A stretch of 39,192 bases of DNA from Bacteroidaceae bacterium (GCA_024695315.1 JAILIJ010000046.1:1-39192); one strand, 5' to 3'; counted from the first letter of the stretch, positions 9,814 to 38,190 are shown. The notes: a model not told the origin generated them from the sequence alone. Program-made: numbers and translations.

Positions 9814-9891
9814 AATCACAGCGTGGTACGGTCGTACCACGGCGTGGTATGATTATACCACGGTGCGGTACGACTGTACCACAGCGTGATT
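9814..9891 (-). repeat. 11-nt phased hairpin array (GTGGTAC/GTACCAC words) inside copy A
   Basis: Seven 11-nt units form three tandem 7-bp hairpins with 4-nt loops (GTGGTAC-GGTC-GTACCAC, GTGGTAT-GATT-ATACCAC, GCGGTAC-GACT-GTACCAC). The outer 16-nt arms are 9814-9829 and 9876-9891. Confidence 0.8.
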
Positions 9892-10030
9892 TTGAAAATT
9901 TCTCTTGAATAATAGAACTATTTCTGCTGAGCATTATAATAAATTATGCGCTCAAATTAAAGAATTATTCAGCATTAAAAGTCGCATCACTGCTTACATC
10001 TAAAAATGACAACAGATCTTGTCTGCTTAA

Positions 10031-10093
10031 TCACCGTTTGAACATCGTTTGAGCACCGTTTGAATACCGCTCAAACACTGCTCAAGTACCGCC
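10031..10093. repeat. 11-bp phased CGTTTGA / TCAAAC word array (copy A)
   Basis: tcaCCGTTTGAacatCGTTTGAgcacCGTTTGAataccgCTCAAACactgCTCAAGtaccgcc has three forward and two reverse words. Confidence 0.75.
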
Positions 10094-10145
10094 AAAAAAT
10101 TGTATTGTCTTTTTTAAAAAATAATGTTTACTCCAAAAGAAAAAT

Positions 10146-10203
10146 GGCGTTCAATTACCATTCAATCATCGTTTGAGTAATGTTTGAACTGTAATTGAAC
10201 GCC
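10146..10203. repeat. 11-bp phased TTCAAT/GTTTGA array closed by a 13-bp inverted repeat
   Basis: GGCGTTCAATTAC (10146-10158) is the perfect reverse complement of GTAATTGAACGCC (10191-10203). The interior is phased as cattcaatcat/cgtttgagtaa/tgtttgaactg. Confidence 0.75.
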
Positions 10204-10344
10204 ACTTGTGTGTACGCATGTTCTCTCTAGATATTTAAAAAATTATCTATCACTTTTCGCAGTCTCAACGCTTGCCGTAGGCTTGATGAAACACACCAAA
10301 CTGAATGTTTTGCAGCATGACTAATTATGCGAAATTTGAAGGAT

Positions 10345-10629
10345 TTATAATCCGGAGAAATACGTTTTGAGTGCTTCTACATATTTCTGCATAGCGTCTC
10401 GTCCTATAGGTGTCATTCGGCAGATGGTTCGGGGCTTTGCGCCAGATGAGTCTGTCATTTTTTCTATATATCCAGCAGTTGTAAGTTTATCTATTTGTAC
10501 ACTTAGATTGCCAGCTGTAGATTCTGTTTTTTCTTTTAAATAAACAAAGTCAGCTTCCCGAGCACTAAGTAGTATAGACATTATTGCTAATCGTAATTGA
10601 CTATGAAGGAGTGGATCAAGTTCTTCCAT
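10345..10629 (-). CDS. winged-helix transcriptional regulator (small MarR/ArsR-like)
   Basis: 94 aa. It has the pattern LHSQLRLAIMSIL...FVYLKEKT..TAGNLSVQIDKL..AGYI, typical of small wHTH regulators. It overlaps the upstream membrane-protein gene by 14 nt. Confidence 0.7.
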   Translation of the reverse strand: MEELDPLLHSQLRLAIMSILLSAREADFVYLKEKTESTAGNLSVQIDKLTTAGYIEKMTDSSGAKPRTICRMTPIGRDAMQKYVEALKTYFSGL

Positions 10630-11251
10630 TATTTTGTTTTTTTGCCTTATCGTTAATTAAATGTCCAGGTATAACCATCATTATGGCGTAAGAGGCTGCA
10701 AAGCCAAGATGCCAGTCTATTGTTAATGTGGAATTTAATATGTACATTTCCATTGCCGCAATTCCAAATGTTATACCTAAAAATCCTCCAACCACTGCAC
10801 TTTTTTCTTTTAATGCAAGTCCTGTAACTGCTGTTCCTATTCCAGGTAGAAGAAGTCCAAGTACAAAGAAAATTATGGTGTGAGCTTGCTTGTGAAATAT
10901 AATGAAGTAGACAATTATGATTGCGGCTATAATAAAGGAATATGAAACCAGTTTCCATATAGAATTAATCATGTATGTTGAATAATTCTCTGCTATTCCT
11001 TCTTTTGGCTTTCTATTATATAATATAGAAAGTAAACAACCTATAAATGGCAATAAAACATAAATCCATGCTGCACTATTTCCGAAATTTAATAATTGTA
11101 GTATCCATACCAAACATCCAATAATCACACTTGTATATCCCCAGATTAGAAATGTGGTTCCACTACCTATAGGTAAATTATCTTTTGTTTGCTGGATCAT
11201 TTGAGTGATAAGTTCTAGACTTTCTTTCTCTGTTATATTTTTTTCTTCCAT
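10616..11251 (-). CDS. polytopic membrane protein, unknown function
   Basis: 211 aa with a cytoplasmic helical N-terminus and about 6 hydrophobic segments. It is translationally coupled to the wHTH gene. Confidence 0.65.
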   Translation of the reverse strand: MEEKNITEKESLELITQMIQQTKDNLPIGSGTTFLIWGYTSVIIGCLVWILQLLNFGNSAAWIYVLLPFIGCLLSILYNRKPKEGIAENYSTYMINSIWKLVSYSFIIAAIIIVYFIIFHKQAHTIIFFVLGLLLPGIGTAVTGLALKEKSAVVGGFLGITFGIAAMEMYILNSTLTIDWHLGFAASYAIMMVIPGHLINDKAKKQNNGRT

Positions 11252-11285
11252 TTTTTTATTGTTAAAATGTTGGTAAAATTTTTGG

Positions 11286-11445
11286 TTTATTTTATAAACT
11301 CAAAATCTAAAAAGAGAAGCAAGGAGTCCGGCTCTCACTTGCTTTTATTTGCGCAAATCTTCTTTTTTTATTGTTTACTGCTGCAAATGTATGATGATTT
11401 ATTTTATAAACCAAGGAAAATAGGCATAAAGTTTATTTTATAAAC
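11286..11445. repeat. three direct copies of TTTATTTTATAAAC
   Basis: Exact 14-mers at 11286-11299, 11398-11411 and 11432-11445, in the intergenic region between the LuxR-type gene and the membrane/wHTH operon. Confidence 0.8.
11306..11350 (-). terminator. hairpin terminator after the LuxR-type gene (T-runs on both strands)
   Basis: AGCAAGGAG / CTC(A)CTTGCT stem at 11318-11343, with CTCTTTTT downstream on the minus strand and TTTATTT downstream on the plus strand. Confidence 0.5.
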
Positions 11446-11538
11446 CATTTTTTTTGTTTCATTAAAAAAAATAAGAAGAAACTTTACTTTTATTGCGGTA
11501 TCAGAGGAAGTATTACGTCTTTTGTTAGAATTTTTATA

Positions 11539-12258
11539 CTACAAATCTCCTACATCTACAAGTCCGTTCATTACACAATATATTATAATATCAGCTAATG
11601 AACGAGCGTGCAACTTTTCCATTATATGTGTTCTATGTGTGATGACGGTAGTGATACTGATATTGAGTTTGTTTGCTATTTCTTTATTTATAAATCCCTT
11701 TGACAGAAGGACTGCTACTTCTATTTCTCTTGCAGAAAGAAGCAGTTCTTGTGGTGTGGATGCAGGTCGAGTTTCGTGATGTGGATGACCAGAAGGCATA
11801 TTGGCATGTTGCATGAAAGACGGTGGCATAGATTTATGTGCCTGTTTCATGTCTATATTGTCAGGGTGTCCACCTGGATGCCCTCCTGGATGTCCTTGTC
11901 CTGGATGTGCGCCTGGGCGTCCATGTCCTGTTCCGTGTAGAGCAAGAATGTCTTTAATTAGCATTTTTTCTGTTTGGCAAACATTTAGTGTCATCACGCC
12001 ATTTATTTGCATGTCTCCATTTACCAAAACAAATGATTTAGTAGCATTTTCGCGAAAGAACTGTGCGTGTTCAAAGTATATGCGTGAAGCAACAAAAAAA
12101 TGCACAAAGTTTTTTTCTTCGCATGATACAAGTTCTTCAAAAGAAGTGAATATGCGAATATCTGCCACAGGAATTAAGTCTTCAAGAATTTGTTGAAGTC
12201 CCATTCCTGCCAAAACATTAGAATCGACTATGGCAACAGAAAAACTATGCATAGTCAT
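11539..12258 (-). CDS. LuxR-family HTH regulator with degenerate receiver-like N-domain and His/Gly/Pro-rich linker
   Basis: The C-terminus LSAREIEVAVLLSKGFINKEIANKLNISITTVITHRTHIMEKL is a LuxR/FixJ-type HTH. The N-terminus VAIVDSNVL...HFFVAS has receiver-like spacing but no Asp at the expected phospho-acceptor. The linker is HGTGHGRPGAHPGQGHPGGHPGGHP...SGHPHH. Confidence 0.75.
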   Translation of the reverse strand: MTMHSFSVAIVDSNVLAGMGLQQILEDLIPVADIRIFTSFEELVSCEEKNFVHFFVASRIYFEHAQFFRENATKSFVLVNGDMQINGVMTLNVCQTEKMLIKDILALHGTGHGRPGAHPGQGHPGGHPGGHPDNIDMKQAHKSMPPSFMQHANMPSGHPHHETRPASTPQELLLSAREIEVAVLLSKGFINKEIANKLNISITTVITHRTHIMEKLHARSLADIIIYCVMNGLVDVGDL

Positions 12259-12684: not shown

Positions 12685-12739
12685 TGCCCCTAAACGTAAT
12701 TCTACAATTTATTGATGTATAATTTTTAGAAAAAACAGA

Positions 12740-13754: not shown

Positions 13755-15242
13755 ATGAAAAAATATACGTGGCAAAAGATCCATAAATGGGTGGGTATTG
13801 TATTTTGCTTCTTTTTGTTGATGTTTAGTATTTCTGGAATAATACTTAACCATCGTCATATGTATGGCAAGTTAAATGTCTCGCGTGGACTTTTGCCTCA
13901 CTCTTTCCAATTTGACAATTGGAATAATGGGCTTTTTCGTGGCAGTCTAAAAGTAGATAAATCTATTATTGGAAAAAAGAAAACCTCATCTGATCGGAAC
14001 ATTTTGGTGTATGGAGCAGGAGGATTTTATTTGACCGATTCCATCGGGAAAGTGTATGAAGATTTTAACAAAGGATTGCCTGAGGGCGCAGATTCAAGGA
14101 AAATACGTAATGTCGTGGTTACACGTAGTGGTAAGATGTTTGCGGTCGCTTCTTATGATCTGTATGCTTATGAAGCAGAGTGGAAAAGTATTCCTACAGA
14201 TAAGTTGACAGATGTTCTTAATCCGCGTTTTACAGATATTGCCGTACGTGGTGATTCCTTGATTGTTTTGGGACGTAGTAATATTTACTTATCTCTCCCT
14301 CCATACGACACATTTGAGGAGATAACTATAAAGTCTCCGCATGGGTATAAAGGCGAGGTTACGCTATTTCGTCTAGTATGGCTTTTGCATAATGGAGAGC
14401 TGTTTGGCATTCCGGGAAAAGTGTTTATAGATCTTGTCGGATTACTATTTATATTTCTGTCAATATCGGGAATCATTATATGGATTGCGGGAAAAGGACG
14501 ATTCCCGAAATTGTTTAGATGGAATTTCAAGTGGCACGAGAAATTAGGTCGTTGGACAATTGCAGCAACTATTTTTATGACTCTAACAGGATGGGCACTA
14601 AGACCTCCATTTCTGATTGCCCTTGTAAAAAATACGGTAAAACCAATTCCTTATACAGTTTTAGATTCTGATAATGCGTGGTATGATAAGCTGCGAATGA
14701 TAATTTATGATGAAACTCATCATGATTGGATTATGTCTACCTCTTCAGGATTTTATAGTCTTAAGAATTTTGAGGATGTTCCAAAGCGTCTAAAGGGCAC
14801 ACCTCCAGTAAGTGCTATGGGCTTAAATGTTATGAAACGCGTTGGAACTAACTGGTTATTAGGATCTTTTTCTGGTATGTTTACTTGGAATCGAGAAAAA
14901 TGTGAATCCTTTGATTATTTCACAGGTTCACCAGCTCCAAAACATGGTGGAGCGCCGTTTGGTAAAGTTGCCATAGCGGGTTACTCGGATGACTTTGCCA
15001 TAAGAAACGTAGTCTGTACTTATGATAAGGGTATACTGACGGAACAATTACCACAACCAGAGGAGATGCGTACACTTCCAATATCAGTTTGGTCTTTGGC
15101 CCTTGAAGTTCATACAGGAAGAATTTACACATTTATGTGCGGGGCAGAGACACTAATTTTTATCTTTGTTTCGGGACTGGTTGTAGCTTTAATCCTATGG
15201 AGTGGTTGGAAACTTAGAATACGAAAAAAGTGCAAAAAGTAA
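13755..15242 (+). CDS. PepSY-associated TM-helix protein
   Basis: N-terminus WQKIHKWVGIVFCFFLLMFSISGIILNHRH, further TM pairs at about residues 220-290 and 465-490, and H-rich TM edges. This matches the architecture of the PepSY_TM family. Confidence 0.65.
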   Translation: MKKYTWQKIHKWVGIVFCFFLLMFSISGIILNHRHMYGKLNVSRGLLPHSFQFDNWNNGLFRGSLKVDKSIIGKKKTSSDRNILVYGAGGFYLTDSIGKVYEDFNKGLPEGADSRKIRNVVVTRSGKMFAVASYDLYAYEAEWKSIPTDKLTDVLNPRFTDIAVRGDSLIVLGRSNIYLSLPPYDTFEEITIKSPHGYKGEVTLFRLVWLLHNGELFGIPGKVFIDLVGLLFIFLSISGIIIWIAGKGRFPKLFRWNFKWHEKLGRWTIAATIFMTLTGWALRPPFLIALVKNTVKPIPYTVLDSDNAWYDKLRMIIYDETHHDWIMSTSSGFYSLKNFEDVPKRLKGTPPVSAMGLNVMKRVGTNWLLGSFSGMFTWNREKCESFDYFTGSPAPKHGGAPFGKVAIAGYSDDFAIRNVVCTYDKGILTEQLPQPEEMRTLPISVWSLALEVHTGRIYTFMCGAETLIFIFVSGLVVALILWSGWKLRIRKKCKK

Positions 15243-15264
15243 TATTTGTTTTGCATATATTTGG

Positions 15265-15306
15265 GGCATCAAAATTAATTAAGGTTAATTTTGATGCCTT
15301 TTGTTA
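15265..15306 (+). terminator. intrinsic terminator after the PepSY-TM gene
   Basis: Perfect 14-bp stem GGCATCAAAATTAA / TTAATTTTGATGCC followed by TTTTGTTATTTTT. Confidence 0.8.
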
Positions 15307-16094: not shown

Positions 16095-16292
16095 TATAAG
16101 TTGCTAATTCTATAATGCAGAATTAGAATATTCTGTATTACTCATATACTTTTTTATTATGGCTTGTTGTTGAAAAAAACGACAGGTCATTTTTTTTATA
16201 ATTCGGAAATATGTTTTTTACCATTTAGAACCAAATTTAATATGATAAGTCCTATTTTTATTCCATTCACCATTGTAAAGTCCAGATTACAA

Positions 16293-16525
16293 TCCTTCGT
16301 ATCGATTTTTTTGAAATGTTAAAAAGTGTGTTAAATCTTGTAAAAGATAGGAAAAATAGGCATTATTGTCATGTTTTTACTACCTTAGAACATTCATCTG
16401 ACGAGTCGCGTCTATCTCCGATTCCAACTGGGGGTGAGCTAAAATTTCAAATGTACGAAATCGATACTCATCAGCAATGGAATACGAATGTGATACGAAG
16501 GAGATACGAAGCGTTGTCGAAGGAG
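16293..16525 (+). repeat. TACGAAGG-word element (family shared with 30393-30526)
   Basis: CGAA recurs at 16485, 16496, 16507 and 16518, an exact 11-nt spacing (aataCGAAtgtgataCGAAggagataCGAAgcgttgtCGAAgg). TCCTTCGTATC (16293-16303) is the perfect reverse complement of GATACGAAGGA (16492-16502). Confidence 0.75.
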
Positions 16526-19149: not shown

Positions 19150-19186
19150 TGCTTTATAGAAAAAATATATTTGTATAAAATAATCG

Positions 19187-19194
19187 CAAATATA
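19187..19194 (-). promoter_or_regulatory. -7 box (TATATTTG) for the sensor-regulator gene
   Basis: The reverse complement of CAAATATA matches TAnnTTTG. It lies downstream of the ATG at 19239 and upstream of the ATG at 19149. Confidence 0.55.
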
Positions 19195-29401: not shown

Positions 29402-29423
29402 CATATCACAATCTATATGTTTA

Positions 29424-29535
29424 GGCTGTGTTTGAGCAATGCTTGAATGGTGCTCAAGCACAGCTTAAATAAGTTCAATCGTTTAATGTTTGTTTAACGG
29501 CCATTAAATGTTCGTTTAATGGATGTTAAATGTTT
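29424..29535. repeat. ~11-bp phased TTGA/TCAA/TTAA word array (10 units)
   Basis: Word cores start at 29432, 29443, 29454, 29465, 29475 and at 29483, 29494, 29504, 29516, 29526. Nested inverted repeats: CTGTGTTTGAGC/GCTCAAGCACAG (11 of 12, with the mismatch a G.U on the plus strand), TGCTTGA/TCAAGCA, CCATTAAA/TTTAATGG. Confidence 0.75.
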
Positions 29536-29650
29536 TACTTATATGATTTTTGAAATGGTAAAAATGGTATTATAAAAGGTCAGAATTTTGTTTTTGATTA
29601 GTGGGCAAGTGAATAGGGGGAGCGTAATGAGTGACTAAATGAACAGGAAT

Positions 29651-30237: not shown

Positions 30238-30266
30238 AATCTTATAATTTGATTGTTTTATATCTG

Positions 30267-30274
30267 CAAAGATA
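30267..30274 (-). promoter_or_regulatory. -7 box (TATCTTTG) for the toxin-antitoxin pair
   Basis: The reverse complement of CAAAGATA matches TAnnTTTG, 30 nt upstream of the ATG at 30237. Confidence 0.55.
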
Positions 30275-30392
30275 AATTGTAATCTCAAGAAAACAAAATA
30301 TATGTTTAACTTTTTTGAAATCAGAAAATAATTATGGCTATGCTATTGGACTTTTAGTTTTTGTCTTATAGGCATATTTTAAGATGGATAAG

Positions 30393-30526
30393 TTGTCAAT
30401 TTGTAAGTTCTCCTTCGGACGCCACTTTCCTTTTGATAATTGACATTTCACGAAAAAGTTACGAAGGTAATACGAAGGAGAATAAAAGGTAATACGAAGC
30501 GTCTCGGAGTAACATTTTGTCAATTT
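30393..30526 (+). repeat. TACGAAGG-word element (family shared with 16293-16525)
   Basis: gtTACGAAGGtaaTACGAAGGagaATAAAAGGtaaTACGAAGCgtcTCGGAG, with CGAA at 30462, 30473 and 30495 (11-nt grid). TTCTCCTTCG (30408-30417) is the reverse complement of CGAAGGAGAA (30473-30482). TGTCAATT occurs at 30394 and 30518, with an inverted AATTGACA at 30438. Confidence 0.75.
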
Positions 30527-30731
30527 CAATATTCGAAATTATGGCGTGATATGTATGAAATGGTAATCTAAGAGAAATGAAATGCTCATATTGCTTATTC
30601 TTATTATTTCTTCCTGTTTTGTGCCGTTATTGTGTTAAATAGCTGAGTTTTTGCTATGTTTATGGGGAAAATTCAACAAAAGTATCGTGTGTAATCAACA
30701 ATTATATTGTCCCTGAGAGAGTAAATGACCG

Positions 30732-30739
30732 TATATTTG
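30732..30739 (+). promoter_or_regulatory. -7 box (TATATTTG) for GH31
   Basis: TAnnTTTG match 33 nt upstream of the ATG at 30772. Confidence 0.6.
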
Positions 30740-30771
30740 CAGCAGAAAAATCATTAAAACCAAATACGTGT

Positions 30772-33141
30772 ATGAAAAGAAAAGCAATCCTTTTTTCTAT
30801 CCTTGCCCTTATGGTCAATTCTATATGGGCGCAGAAAGTGGAGTTCTTTACTCCAAGTATTGTCCGCATTATTAAGGACAACGGACAGCCTTTTGAAAGA
30901 AAGTCGGAAGTGATAACAGCAAAACCGCAGAAGGTGAAGATAAGTAAAAGTGTAGACGGAGATATTACCACCTACAGATCGTCAGCCTTGACCGTTACGG
31001 TAGAAAAGGGTAGGGTGACATTTGCTGATCGTAAGGGGAATGTCCTTTTGCGTGAGGGAGAATGTAAATTTACCCCTATTACCAGCGGCGTGGATAAGGG
31101 TGCATATAAGGTAAAACAAAGCTTTGCGCTTGATAAAGATGAACCGATTTATGGACTCGGATTGTTGCAAAACGGTAAAATGTCGCAGCGTGGTGAGCAT
31201 AGGCTGATGATGCAAAGTAATCTTGAAGATTATAGTAATGTTTTTCAGAGTATTAAAGGCTATGGCATCTATTGGGATAACTATTCGCCAACTCAAATAG
31301 ATGATAATGCTACACTTGAATTAGAGAGTCAGGTCGGAAAGGCCGTAGACTATTATTTTATGTATGGCGTAACGGCCGATGGAGTGATAGCTCAAATGCG
31401 TTATTTATCTGGCAAAGTTCCTATGTCTGCTTTGTGGACATACGGATTTCATCAAAGCCGCGAGCGCTATAAGAGTCAGAATGAGTTGCTTGACGTGGTC
31501 CGTAAATACAGAAAACTTAGGGTGCCATTTGACGGAATAATTCAAGATTGGCAATATTGGGGAAGCAATTACACTTGGAATGCCATGGAGTTCTTGAATG
31601 AAGATTTTGGACGTGCCCAGCAGATGATTGATGAGGTTCACCGTCAGAATGCCCACATGAGTATTTCTATATGGTCATCTTTCGGACCTGAAACCAAGGC
31701 TTTTAAGGAATTGAAGGATAAGGGATTACTCTTTAGTTTTAAGACATGGCCTGAGAGTGGACTTGGGTTCTGGCCTCCACGAATGGACTATCCAAGTGGG
31801 GTGCGTTGCTATGATGTATATAGTCTGGAGGCGCGTGACATTTATTGGAAGAACTTATCAAGGCTTCATAAGATGGGCATTGATGCATGGTGGATGGATT
31901 CTACGGATCCTGACCACATGAGTTTCAAGGATTCTGACCTCGATGAAACGTGTTCTGTGGGCAGCTATCGAAGCGTACGTAACATTTTCCCATTAAAGGC
32001 TGTAAGTGGCGTTTATGACCACCAAAGGGCGGTAGATTCTTCTAAGCGAGTATTTATTCTTACACGTAGCTATTTTGCGGGACAGCAGCGTACTGGAGCG
32101 CAGACTTGGAGCGGCGACATCGGTTCTTCTTGGGAAAACTTCCGTAAGCAGATTCCTATATGTCTCAATTATACTTTAACGGCAAATCCTAATGTGAATA
32201 CGGATATTGGTGGATTCTTTGCTGGCTCATATAATACTCAGGGCCACAATTCGGCAACTCGTAATCCTCAGTATCAGGAACTTTATGTTCGTTGGATGCA
32301 GTTTGGAGCTTTCACACCTATGATGCGAAGCCACGGAACGGACGTCTATCGTGAATTGTATTATTATGGAAAACAGGGTGAGCCGGTATATGATGCTCTC
32401 GTAAATGCCGTGAAGCTTCGATATAACTTCTTGCCTTATATATATAGTACGGCTTGGCAAGTCAGTAAGAATGACGATTCCTTTATGCGTGCTCTAATGA
32501 TGGATTTCAAGAGTGATAGGAATACTTGGGATAATAGCCGTGAGTTTATGTTTGGACGTAATATTCTTGTTTGTCCAGTACTTAGCCCTCTTTATACAAA
32601 GGAGAAGATTGTGAAAACTGACGAACTTAGTGGATGGAATAAGACGGAAAGTCAGGAGGCTAATGCGGGCTATCCTAATGTTAATTGGACGGAGGAGAAG
32701 CAATATGAGGTGTATCTGCCTGCGGGTACTCAATGGTTTGATTTCTGGACAGAGAAGAAGATTGAGGGTGGCCAAAATGTGATGGCTACTGTTCCTCTTG
32801 ACCATTCTCCTTTATATGTTAAGGCCGGAAGCATTATTCCTTTGGGACCGGATGTTCAGTATGCCAATGAGAATAAGTTTGATAATATAGATATTGTTGT
32901 CTACCCTGGAGCAAATGCTGAATTTATGCTTTATGAGGATGAGGGGGATAACTATAATTATGAGAAGGGACAATACTCTACTATTCTGCTCAAGTGGAAT
33001 GATAAGGCTAAGGTGCTTACGATAGGAAAGCGTAAAGGGTCATTTCAGGGTATGCTTGCTAGCCGTACTTTCAACGTGAAGGTTGTTGGCGGAAAGAATA
33101 CGACTGTCAAATATTCTGGAAAGAGTATTACGGTGAAGTAA
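30772..33141 (+). CDS. glycoside hydrolase family 31 (alpha-xylosidase / alpha-glucosidase type)
   Basis: Signal peptide, GIIQDWQYW, GIDAWWMDSTDPD (nucleophile region) and WSGDIGSSW motifs. Size is 789 aa. Confidence 0.88.
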   Translation: MKRKAILFSILALMVNSIWAQKVEFFTPSIVRIIKDNGQPFERKSEVITAKPQKVKISKSVDGDITTYRSSALTVTVEKGRVTFADRKGNVLLREGECKFTPITSGVDKGAYKVKQSFALDKDEPIYGLGLLQNGKMSQRGEHRLMMQSNLEDYSNVFQSIKGYGIYWDNYSPTQIDDNATLELESQVGKAVDYYFMYGVTADGVIAQMRYLSGKVPMSALWTYGFHQSRERYKSQNELLDVVRKYRKLRVPFDGIIQDWQYWGSNYTWNAMEFLNEDFGRAQQMIDEVHRQNAHMSISIWSSFGPETKAFKELKDKGLLFSFKTWPESGLGFWPPRMDYPSGVRCYDVYSLEARDIYWKNLSRLHKMGIDAWWMDSTDPDHMSFKDSDLDETCSVGSYRSVRNIFPLKAVSGVYDHQRAVDSSKRVFILTRSYFAGQQRTGAQTWSGDIGSSWENFRKQIPICLNYTLTANPNVNTDIGGFFAGSYNTQGHNSATRNPQYQELYVRWMQFGAFTPMMRSHGTDVYRELYYYGKQGEPVYDALVNAVKLRYNFLPYIYSTAWQVSKNDDSFMRALMMDFKSDRNTWDNSREFMFGRNILVCPVLSPLYTKEKIVKTDELSGWNKTESQEANAGYPNVNWTEEKQYEVYLPAGTQWFDFWTEKKIEGGQNVMATVPLDHSPLYVKAGSIIPLGPDVQYANENKFDNIDIVVYPGANAEFMLYEDEGDNYNYEKGQYSTILLKWNDKAKVLTIGKRKGSFQGMLASRTFNVKVVGGKNTTVKYSGKSITVK

Positions 33142-33183
33142 ATTATATGATTGAATGATTCAAATTATCTGACAAAATGAATT

Positions 33184-33215
33184 AGACGCTCGACACGAAA
33201 AAGTGTCGAGCGTCT
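33184..33215. terminator. hairpin between convergent GH31 and TonB_C genes
   Basis: Perfect 13-bp stem AGACGCTCGACAC / GTGTCGAGCGTCT with a 6-nt loop. The flanking T-runs are weak on both strands. Confidence 0.5.
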
Positions 33216-33332
33216 GTGTCTCAACTTCCCTATATTTGGGCGTGAATGTTGAAACCGAGTGGGTTAATTGTGTATTGTCGACAAGTAGAATCTTGTTTTT
33301 TTCGGTTGTTAATTGGCCAAAATGATAAGCTC

Positions 33333-34574
33333 TTATTCCAAAGCCATACGTAAGTTTTCTGGCAAAGGCGATAATTCCCAAATCTCGTTTTGTACCTTGG
33401 AATCTTCATCAACAGAAAAAGCCTTAAAAGTATTATCATCAAGCCATTCCATCTTTAACTCTTCTTTTGCAAATGGGAATATAAATCCATTTTGGGTGAA
33501 ATGTATAGGAGAATAGATTAATGTTGAACGTAGATTTTGAATGTCGGAAATAGTTATCATAAGTAGGACGTCCTTGTCGAAAATAAGATATTCATCATTT
33601 TTGCCTTCTTTTAGCATTTCCTTTCCTGCAACATTTATAACGTCTCCGACTTTATGCCATATTCCGACCAATTTGTTGTTCTTATCTCTTTTTACATCCT
33701 TTCTCATTAATGAAATGATACGTTCGACATTCTCAGGAATGTTTTCTTTTCCATACCATTCGGTTATGAATTGGTCCTTTGGAAAATACTTACCTTGCTC
33801 ACTATCGTTGTACCACTTGAACTTAAATCCTTTGTCGCCACAGTCGTAGATTCTTTCTCCGAGTCCATTTGCACCTTGTGGAGTGTCACCTGTATAGCGA
33901 AGAGCTTTACCTATGTCATCGCGCATAGACATAATTTGCACTTTATCCTTGCTACCTTTATTCACAAAAAGTAATGAGGCATTTTTACTTACATATTTGT
34001 ATTGCTCAAATATCGGTATTTGTGGCTCTTTCTCGTTGTCGTAGGAGATCATGCGCAGTTTATACAAACCTTCAGGATTTTCAGCCTTTGTTATGTTTTG
34101 TTCGAACAATTTGCGCACATTTTCTACTTCAGAATCGGATTCTCCTTCTGGCAAACGGAAACTTATAGGTAAGGCGTATTTTGTACATACAGGCTCTCCT
34201 TTAACATAGCCTGGTGTCCAATTTGGCATCATGCTGACCACTCTGATTGCTTCGTTGTCAAGAGAAGGGTGAGCTTTTTTTATAATTCTAGGAGAGATTA
34301 CTTTACCCGTTTTGTCAATAACAAATTGTATGATAACACGACCTTCAATTTTCTTTTCTTTACAGTCGCTTGGATATTTAAGATTTGATTTAAGAAAAGA
34401 CATGAGAGCATTAGTACCACCAGGATATTGAGGTTGAATATCTGGCATTGCAAAAGTGTCCTTTGAGGCTGTTTCCTCAGAATAAATGTTGTCTAATTCG
34501 TTGAATGCGTATAGACTACTAATAGTTGCGGTAGCTATTACAAATAGTACCATCATAATAATACCTTTCTTCAT
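33333..34574 (-). CDS. TonB C-terminal-domain protein with ~270-aa unknown C-terminal extension
   Basis: Signal anchor, then PQYPGGTNALMSFLKSNLKYPSDCKEKKIEGRVIIQFVIDKTGKV, which is TonB_C-like. The remaining residues have no recognisable motif. Confidence 0.65.
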   Translation of the reverse strand: MKKGIIMMVLFVIATATISSLYAFNELDNIYSEETASKDTFAMPDIQPQYPGGTNALMSFLKSNLKYPSDCKEKKIEGRVIIQFVIDKTGKVISPRIIKKAHPSLDNEAIRVVSMMPNWTPGYVKGEPVCTKYALPISFRLPEGESDSEVENVRKLFEQNITKAENPEGLYKLRMISYDNEKEPQIPIFEQYKYVSKNASLLFVNKGSKDKVQIMSMRDDIGKALRYTGDTPQGANGLGERIYDCGDKGFKFKWYNDSEQGKYFPKDQFITEWYGKENIPENVERIISLMRKDVKRDKNNKLVGIWHKVGDVINVAGKEMLKEGKNDEYLIFDKDVLLMITISDIQNLRSTLIYSPIHFTQNGFIFPFAKEELKMEWLDDNTFKAFSVDEDSKVQNEIWELSPLPENLRMALE

Positions 34575-34604
34575 AATTCTTTTTTTTACTGGTTAGTAAT
34601 AATG

Positions 34605-35312
34605 TTAATTTTGGGTTATGGTTATTTCGCTTATATAATACGAATTGTCATCACATATAGAACAATAATAGATGAAATCTGAGTCTTGATAATCCGAAGT
34701 GTAATATTCGTCTATAATATTTGACTCTTCATCTGCCACCTCTTGTTCTTCTGTATATGAGCATATAAATTCCTCGCCCTCCATGTCGTAGATTGCTACT
34801 TTGGAATCGACGGAGCTATCGGTTTGGGCTATTAGTTTATTTGACTCATTTTGTACAGTATGTTCTTTTTGAATAGCTTTGGCTTGTGACTCGCTATTTG
34901 TTGGACGGTTGAGTGCAGCCGTATTTTTTGTTTCTTCAACTTTATCTGATTTTTTTATCTCAAGATTGTTTGGAACTACCTCTACTTTAGTATTTTCAAT
35001 CTTTGCTATAGTAGGATGTCCGGTAGAGACGTCCTCTTTGGTTGGAAAGAAAAACAATAGAGCGATAACGGCACATGCTGCAGCTATTGCGCCATAGCTC
35101 CAAATAGGAATAGTCTTCTGTTTAGGTTTCTCTTTTACCAAATTACTCTTGTCTGCAATAGCGGCATATTCCCTAAACATCTTGGCGTAAGGTAGTAATT
35201 CCTCGGGAATGTCGTTTCCCTTGAAATATTCATAAAGCAGGTGTTCCTCTTCAAGAGTAGTATCTGCCTCAAGATAACGCTCAATAAGTTTTTGTATGTT
35301 TTGCTTCTTCAT
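34605..35312 (-). CDS. putative anti-sigma factor (single-pass membrane protein)
   Basis: 235 aa, short cytoplasmic helical N-domain, one TM (IWSYGAIAAACAVIALLFFF). It overlaps the ECF sigma gene by 32 nt. Confidence 0.5.
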   Translation of the reverse strand: MKKQNIQKLIERYLEADTTLEEEHLLYEYFKGNDIPEELLPYAKMFREYAAIADKSNLVKEKPKQKTIPIWSYGAIAAACAVIALLFFFPTKEDVSTGHPTIAKIENTKVEVVPNNLEIKKSDKVEETKNTAALNRPTNSESQAKAIQKEHTVQNESNKLIAQTDSSVDSKVAIYDMEGEEFICSYTEEQEVADEESNIIDEYYTSDYQDSDFIYYCSICDDNSYYISEITITQN

Positions 35313-35778
35313 CCTTATATCCTTTTAATACAGCCATTCTGGCTCTACTGAGCGATTTCCTGACTGCCTGTTCTGTTGTTCCTATAAGAGTGGCAATGTC
35401 TGCCATCTCCATATTTTGCATCAATCTCATTTTAAGAACCGTTTGTTGCATAGTTGGTAAATTGTCAATCAACTTTAGAATATGCCCAACCTTTTCAGCA
35501 TCATTATCCTCTATGGTGTCATCGCTAATGTCTATTTCATTTATGCTTATATGAGGACAGGTTCTTGTTACTATATTTAGGCATTGGTTACGAACCATTA
35601 TCGACGCAAGTGCTTCGGGCTTTTCTATTGTCCGCTCTTGCTGTATTTGCCATAGTTTCAGGAGTGTGTCCTGAACCACATCTTCGGCTTCAGCACTATC
35701 TCTCACAATCCGTTGAGCGATAGCTATGAGCTTAGGACGTATCCGTTTGGCTAATATTTTGAAAGATTCTGTTTCCAA
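35281..35778 (-). CDS. ECF-type RNA polymerase sigma-70 factor
   Basis: 165 aa with region 2 (AEDVVQDTLLKLW) and region 4 (MEMADIATLIGTTEQAVRKSLSRAR). It has a TTG start, because an in-frame TAG lies immediately upstream. Confidence 0.82.
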   Translation of the reverse strand: METESFKILAKRIRPKLIAIAQRIVRDSAEAEDVVQDTLLKLWQIQQERTIEKPEALASIMVRNQCLNIVTRTCPHISINEIDISDDTIEDNDAEKVGHILKLIDNLPTMQQTVLKMRLMQNMEMADIATLIGTTEQAVRKSLSRARMAVLKGYKDEEAKHTKTY

Positions 35779-35810
35779 TGTATTATTTTTTTGTTTCTAT
35801 AGGGATAACA

Positions 35811-35818
35811 CAAAGATA
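35811..35818 (-). promoter_or_regulatory. -7 box (TATCTTTG) for the ECF sigma operon
   Basis: The reverse complement of CAAAGATA matches TAnnTTTG, 33 nt upstream of the TTG start. Confidence 0.55.
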
Positions 35819-35902
35819 TGTTTTTTGTGACATTCAATATTTATTTTTTTATGTCTTATTATGTAAAAGTGTAAAAATAGTGTTCAAACACCGTTTTGAG
35901 CG

Positions 35903-35935
35903 GTGTTTGAGCAGTGTTTGAGCAGTGTTTGAGCA
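35903..35935 (+). repeat. three perfect tandem copies of GTGTTTGAGCA
   Basis: Copies at 35903-35913, 35914-35924 and 35925-35935, preceded by the 9-bp hairpin CAAACACCG-TTTTGAG-CGGTGTTTG (35885-35909). Confidence 0.9.
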
Positions 35936-36079
35936 GGTTAAATTTATTGAAAAATGTATGTTGGTTCTTAGAAGTAAGCTGTGATGGGGCATTTAATGCT
36001 GGATATTTCTTTCATTCGAGCGCAAAAAATTTTGTAAAGTTCAGCAAGAATAGTTCTATTATTTAGGATGAATTTCACG

Positions 36080-36157
36080 AATCATTCAATGGTACGGTCG
36101 TATACCTAAATGTTACAGTCATACCATTGAATAGTACACCCGTACCATTGAATGATT
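36080..36157 (+). repeat. 11-nt phased hairpin array inside copy B, closed by a perfect 16-bp inverted repeat
   Basis: AATCATTCAATGGTAC (36080-36095) is the exact reverse complement of GTACCATTGAATGATT (36142-36157). The interior is 46 nt, the same length as in copy A. Confidence 0.85.
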
Positions 36158-36354
36158 TTAAGAATTTTTTCGCAATAGGCATAGAATCGCCCAGTAGGAA
36201 TGAAGAAATTTTCCTGCTTTGATGAATAAAATATTCAGCATTATGGTTTCGCTAAAGGGGGAAGGTTTTAGCGTATGTAAAAAAAATATTGCATCAAACC
36301 AATAGCTTGATGTTCGGCTACTTTCGTGAAGGTTGAAGTGTTATTGATATTTGT

Positions 36355-37977
36355 TTAATCTTTATAAGAATCTATAACGTCACTTATTCTTGTACCCAAT
36401 ATTTCTTCTATTCTGTGGAAGTTACGGTGTGCAACAGTACGTGAATAGTTGAATATGCGTGCGATGTCTGCCTGTTTCAACCCAAGTTTTACAAGGTAGA
36501 TTATGATTAGCTCCTTATTTTTTATTGCTGGAAAGTATGAAAGGACATGCTTGCGGAATTGTGGATGAAGCTTATCTACGGCAAGGAATACGCTTTCCCA
36601 TTGGTCTTCTGTTAATGTTTCCTTTGGATCATATTCTATGGCATTGATACTATCCATTACCGTTGATATGTCTTTTGTACATTCTGCTCTCAGCATTTTG
36701 TCTGCGTTGACAATCTCTGTTAGCTTGTTGTGCTCCTCCGTAATCCTTACATTGTCAGATTCTAGTTTCTGGATGTCTGCCTTGTATCCTTTTTTCTTTT
36801 TACTTTGAATGTAAAGCATAAAGCATAGGATAGCCAAAGTATTAGATACGATGGCTATTCCGTATGCAATATATTTGTTTCTTTTTGCAAGTTTTTCTTT
36901 AAGTGAGTTCCTTATTATATCCAATTCTTGTGCTTTAAATTGATTCTGTGCATAGCTTGTCTCTTCTGCTAAATCTTGTACTTTTGCAGAGTCTTCGTAT
37001 ATGTAGTGAATGTTTGCATATTCATATGCCTTGTTCATATCCCCTTTTTCTGCGTAAGATTCAGATAACATTCTTGCATATACTGCTTTTGTTTCGTTAT
37101 CATGTTCATTTTTCCATGCTAATTCAATATAATAAATACATGAGTCTGTATTATTTTCAAGTTCAGAGTAGTATATGGCAACTTTTGCAAGGATATATGG
37201 AGGAATTGAGTCTTTGTCGATAGTTAATATCTGGTCTAATGATATTTTTGCTAATTTGTGATTGTTAATGCGCGTATAGAATTGTAAATGGTCTCCAATA
37301 TAGTCTATATTGTCTTTAATAGAATGGCTGTTAGCCATTTTTATGGCACTTATACTATAATAGTTATACGCACTATCCATATTTCCAAGAGTGTAATAGA
37401 CATTTGCAACGTCTTGATACGATGCAGCATCATCAGTTTTTAGTTGCTGTCGTATTTGTAGGGCGTGTTTCATTTGGTCCAATGATATTGACGGGTTATT
37501 TGCTTTTCCATTCATCCAACTTAGTTGTGAATAGATGTTAGCCAATAGCATGGAATCTGTGTGGCTGATTATGTTGTTTTCTCCTATGTTTACTGCCTCG
37601 TTGTAGTATGAAATAGCAAGTGGATAGTTGTGCATGTCCCTATATGTACTTCCCATATAATAATTGACTTCCATTTTGTCGCCAACGGTACCTTCTTTGT
37701 CGAAGTAATCATATAGGTCTTTAATAATACTGTCTGAAGAGTGGAGTACGTAGCATTTATCCTCCCCTTTGTATTTTAGCAAGGATAGTTTCATTTTATG
37801 GTATTCGTCGTTACCGTTGTAATTGTTGATTATGGATTTAACGGAATCTAATCCCTTTTGTGGATTCAATTCCAGTAAGATATTAAGGTCAGAATAGTCC
37901 TCTTTCTTTGTCTTATAACAAGATGTGCATATCAAAATGCAAATGAATATAAATATTTGAGATGTCTTATATGTCAT
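36355..37977 (-). CDS. TPR-repeat / TM / C-terminal HTH regulator (lipoprotein-type N-terminus)
   Basis: N-terminus IFICILICTSC, multiple TPR-like units (..YYMGSTYRDMHNYPLAISYYNEA.., ..ANVYYTLGNMDSAYNYY..), a TM helix (YIAYGIAIVSNTLAILCFMLYI), a coiled coil, and a LuxR/sigma-region-4-like HTH (LGLKQADIARIFNYSRTVAHRNFHRI). Confidence 0.7.
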   Translation of the reverse strand: MTYKTSQIFIFICILICTSCYKTKKEDYSDLNILLELNPQKGLDSVKSIINNYNGNDEYHKMKLSLLKYKGEDKCYVLHSSDSIIKDLYDYFDKEGTVGDKMEVNYYMGSTYRDMHNYPLAISYYNEAVNIGENNIISHTDSMLLANIYSQLSWMNGKANNPSISLDQMKHALQIRQQLKTDDAASYQDVANVYYTLGNMDSAYNYYSISAIKMANSHSIKDNIDYIGDHLQFYTRINNHKLAKISLDQILTIDKDSIPPYILAKVAIYYSELENNTDSCIYYIELAWKNEHDNETKAVYARMLSESYAEKGDMNKAYEYANIHYIYEDSAKVQDLAEETSYAQNQFKAQELDIIRNSLKEKLAKRNKYIAYGIAIVSNTLAILCFMLYIQSKKKKGYKADIQKLESDNVRITEEHNKLTEIVNADKMLRAECTKDISTVMDSINAIEYDPKETLTEDQWESVFLAVDKLHPQFRKHVLSYFPAIKNKELIIIYLVKLGLKQADIARIFNYSRTVAHRNFHRIEEILGTRISDVIDSYKD

Positions 37978-38010
37978 GTTTTTTGTTTTTGAGGCTTAAT
38001 AAATACGTTG

Positions 38011-38018
38011 CAAAGTTA
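38011..38018 (-). promoter_or_regulatory. -7 box (TAACTTTG) for the TPR-HTH gene
   Basis: The reverse complement of CAAAGTTA matches TAnnTTTG, 34 nt upstream of the ATG at 37977. Confidence 0.55.
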
Positions 38019-38128
38019 GTGATTTTTATTTTAAGTGTATTCTTTTGTGTGAATAAAGTTTTATGCTGTTTTGTGTTGTGTCTGATGGTGCTGTTTATAA
38101 CTAAAAGATATACAACAGAATAGGTGAC

Positions 38129-38190
38129 GTAACAAAAGTGCTAACAATTGCTGTTAACAACTTGTTACAAAGTACTAACGCATTGTAACG
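38129..38190 (+). repeat. six same-orientation (G/C)TAAC(A/G) words at 10-13 bp spacing
   Basis: GTAACAaaagtgCTAACAattgctgTTAACAacttgTTACAaagtaCTAACgcattGTAACG. Word cores start at 38130, 38142, 38155, 38166, 38176 and 38186. The array lies between divergent promoters. Confidence 0.7.

Follow-up and report, generated by a model that had tools for sequence, protein, structure and literature searches.

The stretch of DNA analysed here (hereafter the window) spans 39,192 nucleotides of a Bacteroidaceae bacterium genome and carries nine arrays of short words (Table 1), all of which were found on inspection at the coordinates and with the words given in an earlier note on this sequence. The genes that adjoin these arrays include many regulators (HTH_34, LuxR, HTCS/AraC, ECF sigma, and TPR-HTH), and a RelE/antitoxin pair is flanked by arrays 5 and 6, of which array 6 is located where the antitoxin gene and the GH31 gene diverge. 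As also proposed earlier, arrays do sit between convergent genes, this being so for three of the five such gaps in the window. No credible coding sequence was found in the array regions, where the open reading frames are only short and non-conserved, in agreement with the description of the arrays as extragenic and noncoding. Moreover, the array-bearing gaps are synteny breakpoints with respect to relatives, in which the 7 kb between the GH95 and TPR genes is replaced by 0.4-1.5 kb.

Table 1. Repeat arrays and the duplicated element in the window, with the word family of each array
Feature	Position	Strand	Word family	Description
Element A	9701..10099	-		Copy 1, noncoding, palindromic, ~400 nt; holds arrays 1 and 2
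Array 1	9814..9891	.	TGGTAC-N4-GTACCA	Apex of element A palindrome; three 21-nt TGGTAC-N4-GTACCA-type units
Array 2	10031..10093	-	YGTTTGARC	Module of element A; aligns with array 7
Array 3	10146..10207	-	YGTTTGARC	Long hairpin of TTCAAT/GTTTGA words, then AUUUUUCUUUU on minus strand
Array 4	16482..16525	+	ATACGAAGG	Four direct ATACGAAGG-type units on exact 11-nt grid
Array 5	29418..29535	+	YGTTTGARC	Pair of long hairpins (~29418-29471, ~29479-29535)
Array 6	30459..30510	+	ATACGAAGG	Direct ATACGAAGG-type units, 11/22-nt spacing
Element B	35870..36272	+		Copy 2, ~400 nt; holds arrays 7 and 8
Array 7	35882..35936	.	YGTTTGARC	Module of element B
Array 8	36080..36157	.	TGGTAC-N4-GTACCA	Hairpin at the apex of element B; homologue of array 1
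Array 9	38129..38190	.	GTTAC	GTTAC/GTAAC/GTTAAC/GTTAG words, 10-13 bp spacing

Using Tandem Repeats Finder (TRF), a period of 11 was returned at 10032-10069, 16482-16511, 30460-30499, and 35895-35936, a period of 21 at 9817-9888, and a period of 11/22 at 29481-29535. When 5 kb of intergenic DNA was scanned at a threshold of at least 20/33 self-matches with dinucleotide shuffles as the control, we found five segments at lag 11 (0.40 in shuffles), four at lag 21 (0.28), and ten at lag 22 (0.27), with all other lags at background level. In a second scan that compared intergenic with coding DNA at a threshold of at least 21/33, lags 10, 11, 21, and 22 gave 16 intergenic segments and no coding ones, while the 23 remaining lags gave five intergenic and eight coding segments, six of the latter at multiples of 3. 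The periodicity is genuine, far above chance, and restricted to intergenic DNA, with no such density of segments in shuffled or coding DNA at these lags. The earlier claim of phasing at about 11 bp is thereby upheld for lags 11, 21, and 22, but not for array 9, which is loosely spaced. Relatives show the same bias toward periods of 11, 21, and 22 (12 of 22 TRF arrays), whereas the periods in unrelated metagenome contigs are broadly spread. The 11-nt module itself may reflect a single helical turn, either of A-form RNA or, approximately, of DNA.

These periods bear on two rather unlikely alternatives. In one of them, the arrays would be functionless by-products of mutation, with slippage duplicating short units and template switching perfecting quasi-palindromes in dispensable DNA that builds up at recombination junctions; their location at synteny breakpoints suits this origin, as do the perfect adjacent units of array 7 and of an array in L002, which point to recent duplication, though slippage by itself fails to explain an enrichment confined to 11, 21, and 22, here as in relatives. 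In the other, all arrays would be helically phased landing pads on double-stranded DNA, similar to iterons, operators, or centromeres, and occupied by a nucleoid protein or by DNA-binding proteins that oligomerise, with the hairpin potential a by-product of mixed word orientations. Here, periods of 11, 21, and 22 bp do amount to one or two DNA turns, and regulator genes are abundant nearby, but three of the array-bearing gaps are convergent and hence offer no promoter to regulate.

Contrary to the earlier view that the word differs at each locus, the words of the nine arrays sort into four families. The YGTTTGARC word occurs 10 times (1.4 expected), with nine of these occurrences inside arrays 2, 3, 5, and 7, and TGGTAC-N4-GTACCA occurs three times (0.06 expected). 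Moreover, the exact 11-mer GTGTTTGAGCA is common to arrays 5 and 7, while arrays 4 and 6 have in common both ATACGAAGG and an identical ending (ATACGAAGCGT..TCG..GGAG). Judged from the sequences, the words are family-specific without being locus-specific, and the families appear small and dispersed. For the landing-pad alternative, four word families would require four proteins.

Four of the nine arrays lie within a duplicated element, two in each copy, and array 1 corresponds in position to array 8 and array 2 to array 7. Element A aligns in reverse orientation with 35965-36271 (75% identity over 307 bp, E 1.7e-55). Because the element also matches its own reverse strand in nhmmer (E 2.4e-22), its core, some 270 nt long, can be described as imperfectly palindromic. 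On sequence grounds the element of about 400 nt is noncoding, and in element A no frame is open and none has a synonymous excess. The predicted fold of element A reaches -100.7 kcal/mol (z -10.0), with the minus strand the more stable, and that of element B -96.2 kcal/mol on the plus strand versus -80.7 kcal/mol on the minus strand. At the apex, array 1 folds as a single hairpin with arms of ~38 bp (-57.4 kcal/mol, z -10.8), and its stem pairs show compensatory changes with respect to array 8, whose words are CAATGGTAC/GTACCATTG and whose fold has z -6.6/-7.3. Array 2 consists of 11-nt units, three direct and two inverted, and folds better on the minus strand (-24.8 versus -14.5 kcal/mol). In array 7, GTGTTTGAGCA is repeated in three perfect units and a 10-bp palindrome is also present (TRF period 11, 96% matches).

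When three sequences of the element are compared, pairing extends to 95.3% of cells, as opposed to 42-46% in slid controls. In 12 pairs both partners have changed, whereas shuffles give 4.3 and none of the 500 attains 12, a count to be read with the tested structure having been derived from the same three sequences, two of which are 97% identical. The consensus fold for the A-minus/B-plus strand has 127 pairs at -121.4 kcal/mol, and the opposite strand 96 pairs at -89.1 kcal/mol. Similarly, G.U pairs are more numerous on the favoured strand than on the other in both copy A (13 versus 6) and copy B (14 versus 7), and this strand bias tracks the orientation of the element and not the replication strand. 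Such strand-biased G.U pairing is unexpected for a site in duplex DNA, and near-perfect complementarity in arms of 38-65 bp goes beyond what an operator needs, though the landing-pad alternative does gain from the word phase being kept where the orientation flips between arrays 2 and 7. A bias that follows element orientation also speaks against mere mutation by-products. What these folds suggest instead is an extensively structured RNA of ~400 nt that would correspond to the minus strand in copy A and to the plus strand in copy B, although no convincing Bacteroidetes-type promoter (TAnnTTTG) was found for it. On the minus strand of array 7, a terminator-like hairpin with a U-run lies at 35910-35884, and so points to the strand opposite that favoured by the G.U bias. 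Array 7 is also 64-118 nt upstream of a -7 box of the ECF sigma gene (TATCTTTG, 35811-35818, minus strand; read by eye from the sequence).

Less likely still is that the arrays belong to non-autonomous mobile elements of a MITE- or REP-like kind, the words being subterminal sites bound by a transposase whose gene would lie in another part of the genome. The presence of the element within 39 kb in two diverged copies and the array gaps at synteny breakpoints would fit this. However, neither element A nor element B is flanked by a target-site duplication, as read from the alignment and folds, and the conserved block of the element is without a match in 185,579 representative genomes, JGI metagenomes, plasmids, or phages. 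Moreover, among the 28 window genes scanned, none has a Pfam transposase domain, so that no RAYT/IS200-type gene is visible in the window.

Six of the nine arrays are palindromic. Rather than the chains of 6-9 bp hairpins described earlier, arrays 1, 3, 5, 7, and 8 form long composite hairpins (z -4.6 to -10.8), and arrays 4, 6, and 9 remain unfolded. Among the former, array 3 folds to -32.8 kcal/mol (z -7.8) on the minus strand and to -25.9 kcal/mol on the plus strand; a U-tract follows only on the minus strand, which is that of the upstream HTH_34 operon (10345-11251). Between the HTH_34 stop codon and array 3, reading the sequence by eye revealed no other terminator-like hairpin, and array 3 is probably the intrinsic terminator of this operon. 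Array 5 begins 17 nt past the GH95 stop codon and folds to -48.9 kcal/mol (z -6.7) on the plus strand versus -29.2 kcal/mol on the minus strand, and its G.U pairs occur only on the plus (GH95) strand, which has 12; its modelled fold probably serves the GH95 operon as a 3'-end or terminator structure. Ordinary terminators occur elsewhere in the window (9250-9285, 15263-15300, and 33184-33215), but arrays 3 and 5 are the sole terminator-like structures after the HTH_34 and GH95 operons, a placement at odds with functionless by-products.

Arrays 4, 6, and 9 show no significant fold (z +0.5 to -1.9). For array 4, z is +0.5/-0.3 locally and -1.2/-1.7 over 276 nt, with one inverted word at 16294-16302, and for array 6 it is -0.9/-0.1. 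Array 9 precedes the -7 box TACCTTTG (38222-38229) of the gene at 38307-38906 by 32-93 nt. Its words are all conserved in L001 and L005 and only the spacers have changed, which likewise disfavours a purely mutational origin. GTTAC-word clusters recur beside the promoter at loci of the regulator homologue, in L002 (two genes), in L003, and more weakly in L004; in the five loci, including the window, there are 22 GTTAC/GTAAC words in 2.2 kb versus a background of 2.0 per kb. Array 9 is thus probably an operator array for the TPR-DUF6377-HTH regulator, which is encoded divergently, and arrays 4, 6, and 9 are best read as candidate operator-type binding sites of regulators, which fits them better than extragenic palindromes. 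If extended to all arrays, as the landing-pad alternative would have it, protein binding could likewise call upon arrays 7 and 9 and the L002 array (about 110-260 nt from its box) being upstream of -7 boxes, and upon an unrelated metagenome contig (L061) in which ~350 bp of 11-bp GTTTGAAC repeats beside an AT-rich stretch look like an origin with iterons.

We also considered that the arrays might be site-specific recombination sites (integron attC-like or Xer/dif-like) bounding cassettes such as the RelE toxin-antitoxin pair. The position of arrays 5 and 6 around this pair would agree with that, as would the swapped 7-kb GH95-TPR interval, and GTTTAAC and GTTAAAT in array 5b fit the attC R''/R' consensus (RYYYAAC/GTTRRRY). 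Being short and AT-rich, however, this consensus is easily matched by chance. The candidate site, at 41 nt, is smaller than known attC sites, the words of arrays 5 and 6 are unrelated, and the window has no integrase or recombinase genes, all of which makes such sites highly improbable.

The explanation we tentatively prefer, at somewhat under even odds, is that two classes of array have been built by one rule from modules of 11 or 21-22 nt, namely RNA hairpins and arrays of regulator sites. The first class (arrays 1, 2, 3, 5, 7, and 8) would comprise the arms and apexes of long imperfect palindromes in small, dispersed families, with arrays 3 and 5 as stand-alone hairpins directly at gene 3' ends. 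These would work chiefly as RNA, the stem-loops of arrays 3 and 5 ending or protecting transcripts. In the second class (arrays 4, 6, and 9), binding sites for regulators would be phased onto a single helical face, array 9 serving as the operator array beside the promoter that faces away from the TPR-HTH regulator gene.

Among known elements, REP/BIME, BOX, and the BrickBuilt repeats of Porphyromonas gingivalis come closest, and the first class would be of their general kind. REP/BIME in Enterobacteria and REPINs in Pseudomonas form dispersed families of imperfect extragenic palindromes that frequently separate convergent genes, alternate in orientation, and can stabilise upstream mRNA and bind proteins; the REP unit is ~35-40 bp, present in hundreds of copies, and has a conserved 5' tetranucleotide recognised by the RAYT transposase. 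The earlier comparison with such palindromes holds for the six palindromic arrays, with their dispersed families and convergent gaps, but not for the direct repeats of arrays 4, 6, and 9, and the window differs further in its 11-nt modules, in showing no REP consensus, and in having no RAYT gene visible among its genes. BOX of Streptococcus pneumoniae, arranged as boxA-(boxB)n-boxC, is similarly modular and intergenic, with a variable number of internal repeats and stable folds, though its boxB unit measures ~45 nt, its repeats are not phased at 11 nt, and the sequences are unrelated. For arrays 4, 6, and 9, the closest analogues are Pho boxes (PhoB/PhoP), plasmid iterons, and parC repeats, these being short direct repeats spaced at 11 or 21-22 bp, which places bound proteins on one helix face; in contrast, arrays 4 and 6 have no obvious adjacent target promoter and array 9 has mixed orientations. 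STRR sequences of heterocystous cyanobacteria are also short tandem units in noncoding DNA whose inverted arrays are able to form stem-loops, but with a 7-nt unit, in another phylum, and unconnected with the helical repeat. Reports of BrickBuilt are confined to P. gingivalis, where it is present in 19 copies per genome and is made up of a single 23-nt direct repeat unit together with leader and tail segments that carry small terminal inverted repeats (Klein et al., 2015; PMC4596501). The likeness here lies in the order (Bacteroidales), the strictly intergenic and modular organisation, and the conserved flanks around a short-period tandem repeat, whereas the window has units of 11 or 21-22 nt in both orientations, at least four word families, only two visible copies of the larger element, and no sequence similarity. 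While the long hairpins match known kinds of bacterial intergenic repeat, the strict spacing is the only unusual feature.

Repeat number differs among strains (one 22-mer has two copies in L005 and three in L007), and the words appear homogenised inside each array. Arrays could lengthen or shorten via replication slippage, and conversion or template switching would homogenise their words, such that those of one array change together. Array 8 differs from its L133 counterpart by five clustered changes of a conversion type, with the L133 hairpin the more regular. The L133 ortholog of element B is 97.3% identical; set against the neighbouring ECF coding block (98.8%), element B (97.7%) is conserved no better, and it therefore gives no evidence of purifying selection. 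Such copy-number differences, clustered changes, and an element that evolves no slower than coding DNA all suit the by-product alternative, and palindromes can persist mechanically by template-switch correction with no function needed, though an L132-type element exceeds the genes on both its sides in conservation. In L001, L005, and L132, a 300-nt element with the ends GAGTTATC...GATAACTC is 98-98.6% identical, compared with 85-96% for the genes on either side. Other small dispersed repeats are found in relatives, such as a 160-bp repeat in two copies (89% identical) in L009, and L001 differs from the window by an insertion of 180 bp whose terminal inverted repeats measure 14 bp; together with the GAGTTATC...GATAACTC element, these are of the sort that mobile elements would leave.

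An earlier note on the window had described nine intergenic arrays of short words phased at about 11 nt, and all nine were confirmed at their positions and with their words (see the table). Across the whole window, seven of the nine Tandem Repeats Finder (TRF) arrays scoring at least 40 have a period of 11, 21, or 22. Moreover, a self-match scan over 5 kb of intergenic DNA, with a cut-off of at least 20 matches in 33 and dinucleotide shuffles as the control, returned 5 segments at lag 11 (0.40 in shuffles), 4 at lag 21 (0.28), and 10 at lag 22 (0.27), with the remaining lags at background. At a cut-off of at least 21 of 33, lags 10, 11, 21, and 22 gave 16 intergenic and no coding segments, and 23 other lags gave 5 intergenic and 8 coding segments, six of these eight coding ones lying at multiples of three. 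An equal density in shuffled or coding DNA, the outcome that the earlier note regarded as fatal to its claim, was looked for with this lag scan and not obtained. In related Prevotellaceae loci (93 kb), 12 of 22 TRF arrays likewise have a period of 11, 21, or 22, and the TRF periods in unrelated metagenome contigs are broadly spread. The periodicity is real, statistically strong, and common to related genomes.

Coordinates of the arrays and other features in the window, with the TRF period and the z-score of the fold
Feature	Position	Period	z	Remark
Array 1	9814-9891	21	-10.8	in element A
Array 2	10031-10093	11		in element A
Array 3	10146-10207		-7.8	better strand
Array 4	16482-16525	11	+0.5	between convergent genes
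Array 5	29418-29535	11/22	-6.7	better strand
Array 6	30459-30510	11	-0.9	
Array 7	35882-35936	11	-6.2	better strand; in element B
Array 8	36080-36157		-6.6	in element B
Array 9	38129-38190		-0.5 to -1.9	
Element A	9701-10099			
Element B	36272-35870			reverse orientation to A
Canonical terminators	9250-9285, 15263-15300, 16159-16190, 33184-33215			
Terminator of TPR gene	36292-36312			
Rhamnose operon	4485-9226			
Hybrid two-component regulator gene	16624-19239			minus strand
TPR-DUF6377-HTH regulator gene (TPR gene)	36355-37977			minus strand
-7 box TACCTTTG	38222-38229			of gene 38307-38906
95-aa ORF	9373-9660			
Conserved noncoding stretch	9450-9610			plus strand; downstream of rhaD
Terminator hairpin of this stretch	9565-9598			GATTATTCCTGCGCC...GGTGCGGGAATAGTT + U-run
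Motif TTTATTTTATAAAC, three copies	11292, 11403, 11432 (approx.)			in gap 11252-11538
LuxR-type regulator gene	11539-12258			minus strand
27-bp tandem repeat	11873-11930			2.1 copies, 80% matches

Besides the genes in the table, the 39.2-kb window, from a Bacteroidota organism, contains RGL11, GH2, GH95, and GH31 glycoside-degrading genes, a RelE toxin-antitoxin pair, and an ECF sigma operon; tRNA and tmRNA genes were searched for and not found. Its nearest relative among representative genomes is an uncultured Prevotellaceae MAG (locus L001), and the window proteins have no record on any other contig, most being singletons at 90% clustering. As for minor features, the 27-bp tandem repeat within the LuxR-type regulator gene is an in-frame coding repeat, and the motif present three times between that gene and the gene at 10616-11251 is a possible regulator site. 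The noncoding stretch conserved downstream of rhaD shares about 72% identity with its counterparts in the relatives L009 and L010, closes with a terminator hairpin that has compensatory changes in relatives, and resembles an unannotated small RNA or leader. The 95-aa ORF that overlaps this stretch has no Pfam match and no similarity to the TPR protein, and is probably spurious.

The words had been taken to be specific to each locus, but this view did not hold, and not all of the arrays are independent of one another. The words recur across arrays as families. Arrays 1 and 8 are characterized by TGGTAC-N4-GTACCA, arrays 4 and 6 by ATACGAAGG and a common ending (ATACGAAGCGT..TCG..GGAG), and the exact 11-mer GTGTTTGAGCA is common to arrays 5 and 7. 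YGTTTGARC occurs 10 times against 1.4 expected, with nine of the ten occurrences in arrays 2, 3, 5, and 7. Moreover, arrays 1 and 2 and arrays 8 and 7 are parts of one duplicated element: copy A is homologous to copy B read in the opposite direction, with 75% identity over 307 bp (E 1.7e-55), and the two can be aligned over about 400 nt. Array 1 in copy A corresponds in position to array 8 in copy B, and array 2 to array 7, and it is because of these equal positions that the architecture seemed to be kept while the word changed. The element also matches its own reverse strand (E 2.4e-22), its core being an imperfect palindrome of about 270 nt with array 1 or array 8 at the apex, and the palindromes of the two copies fold at -100.7 and -80.7 kcal/mol. 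There is no frame open in both copies and no synonymous excess in any frame.

A JGI metagenome contig (L133), orthologous to positions 34942-37658 of the window, supplies a third sequence of the element. The consensus structure of the three sequences, on the strand that is minus in A and plus in B, has 127 pairs at -121.4 kcal/mol, against 96 pairs at -89.1 kcal/mol for the opposite strand. Here, 95.3% of cells in the three sequences are paired, compared with 42-46% in slid controls, a share inflated by the derivation of the structure from the same sequences. Twelve pairs are altered on both sides and yet still paired, against 4.3 in shuffles, with none of 500 shuffles reaching 12; the compensatory changes between the paralogs A and B are real despite that derivation. 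G.U pairs also favor the same homologous strand in both copies (13 versus 6 and 14 versus 7). Since GC skew is uniformly positive across the window and the two copies are oppositely oriented relative to it, this bias tracks the element and not the replication strand, and it forms the main, if not a decisive, argument for structure at the RNA level. The terminator-like hairpin and U-run of array 7 lie on the minus strand, which is not the strand favored by G.U pairs. A manual search found no Bacteroidetes-type promoter (TAnnTTTG) shared by both copies, and a sigma-70 promoter scan was set aside, its matches being at shuffle level and the sigma-70 consensus inapplicable to Bacteroidota.

The element has two copies in the window and the one ortholog. 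Searching for the pattern CCTACTGGGCNATTCTATGCC gave no further copy in representative-genome contigs or in metagenome contigs, blastn against plasmids and phages gave none, and nhmmer over all fetched loci returned the window copies only. A second metagenome scan, for three GTTTGAR words at 11-bp spacing, gave at least 120 matches from environments of all kinds and over a GC range of 18-69%, which is non-specific and uninformative on the family. REP/BIME elements (REPINs) consist of units, about 20-40 bp long, that share a conserved recognition tetranucleotide; they are present in tens to hundreds of copies and have a cognate RAYT (IS200/IS605 TnpA-like) gene. The earlier likening of the arrays to them stands insofar as these are extragenic imperfect palindromes in a dispersed family (YGTTTGARC at four loci, all intergenic). 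The units of the window arrays are 11 or 21-22 nt, and none of the 28 window genes has a Pfam transposase-domain match. Terminal inverted repeats, a feature of MITEs, are present in A and B, as their palindromes of about 270 nt, and in the ends (GAGTTATC...GATAACTC) of a different 300-nt palindromic element, with TTTGAAC-type words, which lies at the corresponding place, downstream of the TPR gene, in the relatives L001, L005, and L132. Target-site duplications are absent from A and B, as the flanks of the palindrome differ in both A (GTCTCTTT vs TCACTGCT) and B (GCGAAACCA vs AATGCCCCA). The element is missing from the syntenic gaps of L001, L005, L009, and L132, these having been replaced wholesale with no clean empty site. 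Separately, L001 has at 3254-3430 an insertion of 180 bp, bounded by 14-bp terminal inverted repeats (GACCTGTACGGTTG...CAACCGTACAGGTC), in the 5′ leader of the homologue of gene 38307-38906. The window lacks this insertion, which resembles a MITE, at about 38250.

The arrays had also been described as chains of small hairpins, but arrays 1, 3, 5, 7, and 8 fold as long composite hairpins (z -4.6 to -10.8), and arrays 4, 6, and 9 have no significant fold. Array 1, for instance, is a single hairpin with arms of about 38 bp at -57.4 kcal/mol, to which array 8 corresponds. Array 3 has its best fold on the minus strand, where AUUUUUCUUUU comes next, so that a stable hairpin precedes a U-tract; it lies 138 nt past the stop codon of the HTH_34 operon, and no other terminator-like hairpin was seen in between. 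Array 5 begins 17 nt past the GH95 stop codon and folds at -48.9 kcal/mol on the GH95 strand versus -29.2 on the other, with 12 G.U pairs versus none, and is the weaker terminator candidate, its U-rich tail coming after a second hairpin. No such arrangement is found at arrays 4, 6, and 9. Given the canonical terminators elsewhere in the window and the placement of arrays 3 and 5 past these stop codons, the simplest reading is that both are terminators or 3′-end structures of their operons. If such hairpins end or insulate transcripts, they are relevant to operon annotation in gut and rumen Bacteroidota.

Arrays 4 (units on an exact grid of 11 nt) and 6 (spacings of 11 or 22 nt) are direct repeats without hairpin potential and resemble Pho boxes, which are direct repeats on an 11-bp grid. 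One inverted copy of their word is located upstream of array 4, and a long-range fold of the inverted CCTTCGTAT word with array 4 was rejected, the 276-nt fold being not significant. The likeness of an L002 word (CGATGGAGAT) to the ATACGAAGGAGAT words of arrays 4 and 6, at nine of ten bases, was discarded as within chance given the comparisons made. Array 9, at 32-93 nt upstream of the -7 box of a gene divergent from the TPR-HTH regulator gene, has words that are all identical in L001 and L005, with the differences confined to spacers. Clusters of GTTAC words, some inside 21-22-bp direct repeats, are found about 35 nt away from the -7 box complement at the loci of TPR-HTH homologues (44-94% protein identity) in L003 and at two genes of L002, and in weaker form in L004. 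Five independent loci (the window, two in L002, L003, and L004), 2.2 kb in all, contain 22 GTTAC/GTAAC words, the background being 2.0 per kb. This pattern, drawn from sequence, fits array 9 being a putative operator array of the TPR-HTH regulator. If the direct repeats are operators, they offer candidate binding sites for the uncharacterized TPR-DUF6377-HTH regulator family. At L002 3581-9314, a homologue stands beside a peptidase-C39 ABC exporter, a TonB-dependent receptor, and small ORFs, a context suggesting that the family controls peptide or bacteriocin-like export loci.

With regard to how the arrays change, a 22-nt unit has two copies in L005 and three in the otherwise near-identical L007, array 7 has three perfect units, and an L002 array has 13 units in exact 11-nt register, from which a hairpin of -91.5 kcal/mol forms. 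Of the 13 intergenic differences that separate L133 from the window, five are clustered within about 36 nt of array 8, and by these the L133 words come to match their neighbors. These observations indicate that the arrays evolve by slippage together with intra-array conversion or template switching, and it is for this reason that all words of one array change together. Element B is 97.7% identical to L133, the adjacent ECF coding block 98.8%, and the TPR gene 85% (71% at third codon positions). Purifying selection on element B had been read from its identity and was withdrawn in light of the ECF block, the low overall identity being due to the TPR gene. Compared with L133 559-1302, this gene has its divergence breakpoint at the stop codon, and the adjoining intergenic region and ECF sigma operon are 98-99% identical, which suggests allele replacement through recombination. 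The 300-nt element is 98-98.6% identical among L001, L005, and L132, both flanking genes being 85-96% identical, a degree of conservation that fits either selective constraint or recent spread. Directly after this element, L005 (7286-7690), like L006 and L007, has a 405-bp insertion that is absent at the same site in L001 and L132.

Arrays are present in three of five gaps between convergent genes, in two of five between divergent genes, and in one between tandem genes, which bears out the claim that several sit between convergent genes. Wherever relatives are comparable, the array-bearing gaps are synteny breakpoints. Positions 29401-36355 (7 kb, GH95 to the TPR gene) are represented by only 0.4-1.5 kb in L001 (5345-6502), L005 (6944-8428), and L132 (2380-3406), and past the rhamnose operon L009 has a TonB-dependent receptor gene instead. 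The 7 kb includes the RelE toxin-antitoxin, GH31, and TonB/anti-sigma/ECF sigma genes, and a small LiaF-TM-like gene is all that its replacement in the three relatives contains.

For Proteobacteria and Firmicutes, there are good descriptions of small intergenic repeat elements. Our literature search on 11-bp repeats, REP elements, and terminators in Prevotella and Bacteroides found nothing relevant except BrickBuilt of Porphyromonas gingivalis, the closest case in the same order, and as far as this literature goes, little is known of such repeats in Bacteroidota beyond it. BrickBuilt is intergenic and modular, its leader and tail segments enclosing a 23-nt tandem direct repeat. It forms long stem-loops and has a repeat number that varies between strains and no Rfam match (PMC4596501). 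The window arrays differ from it in unit size (11, 21, and 22 nt, with no 23-nt unit), in mixed orientations, and in having several word families, and have no sequence relation to it. A scan with Rfam 15 covariance models at E up to 1 likewise gave no match overlapping any array. Integron attC sites have an R″-L″...L′-R′ architecture of at least 57 nt and stand next to cassettes with an integron integrase; the sole look-alike, of 41 nt in array 5b, was rejected, the window having no integrase gene. The ncRNA arrays of UG27 reverse transcriptases in Bacteroides prophages were found inapplicable, as the window has no reverse transcriptase.

Taken together, the nine arrays are a mixture of two copies of a palindromic noncoding element, two terminator-like composite hairpins, and three operator-like direct-repeat arrays, which is ordinary in kind for bacterial intergenic DNA and no new category. 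More specifically, this uncultured Prevotellaceae lineage has its longest intergenic gaps filled with hairpin-forming and direct-repeat arrays at strict one- or two-turn spacing, adjoining polysaccharide-utilization genes and their regulators. The consistent preference for an 11-nt building block is the sole part that could lead to something new. We think it unlikely that A and B are the first representatives of a so far undescribed family of highly structured RNAs, giant hairpins about 400 nt long made of 11-nt modules (one A-form turn each), and that they form, with the lineage-wide excess of 11, 21, and 22 nt in these Prevotellaceae, one dedicated system distinct from ordinary terminators, operators, or junk. 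Such a system could be a protein reading helically phased words on dsRNA or dsDNA, or REP/RAYT-like machinery with a new unit size.

REP/BIME, BOX, and cyanobacterial STRR sequences are functional analogues of the window arrays, which could be assigned to none of the known families compared. Tandem heptamers and octamers (AAGTGAA, AAGTTAA, TCAATTA, and TAAGTTCG) that recall the STRR occur in the related Bacteroidales loci L003 (1-34 and 827-913) and L004 (5387-5416 and 6321-6350). L009 has two copies (2951-3120 and 14395-14555; 89% identical) of a dispersed noncoding repeat that is about 160 bp long and itself contains 22-bp repeats. Lastly, a tract that looks like an iteron-type replication origin is present in the unrelated metagenome contig L061 (55% GC) at about 1620-2000, shown on the minus strand, where 11-bp GTTTGAAC-type repeats run for about 350 bp, with an AT-rich stretch immediately after them.
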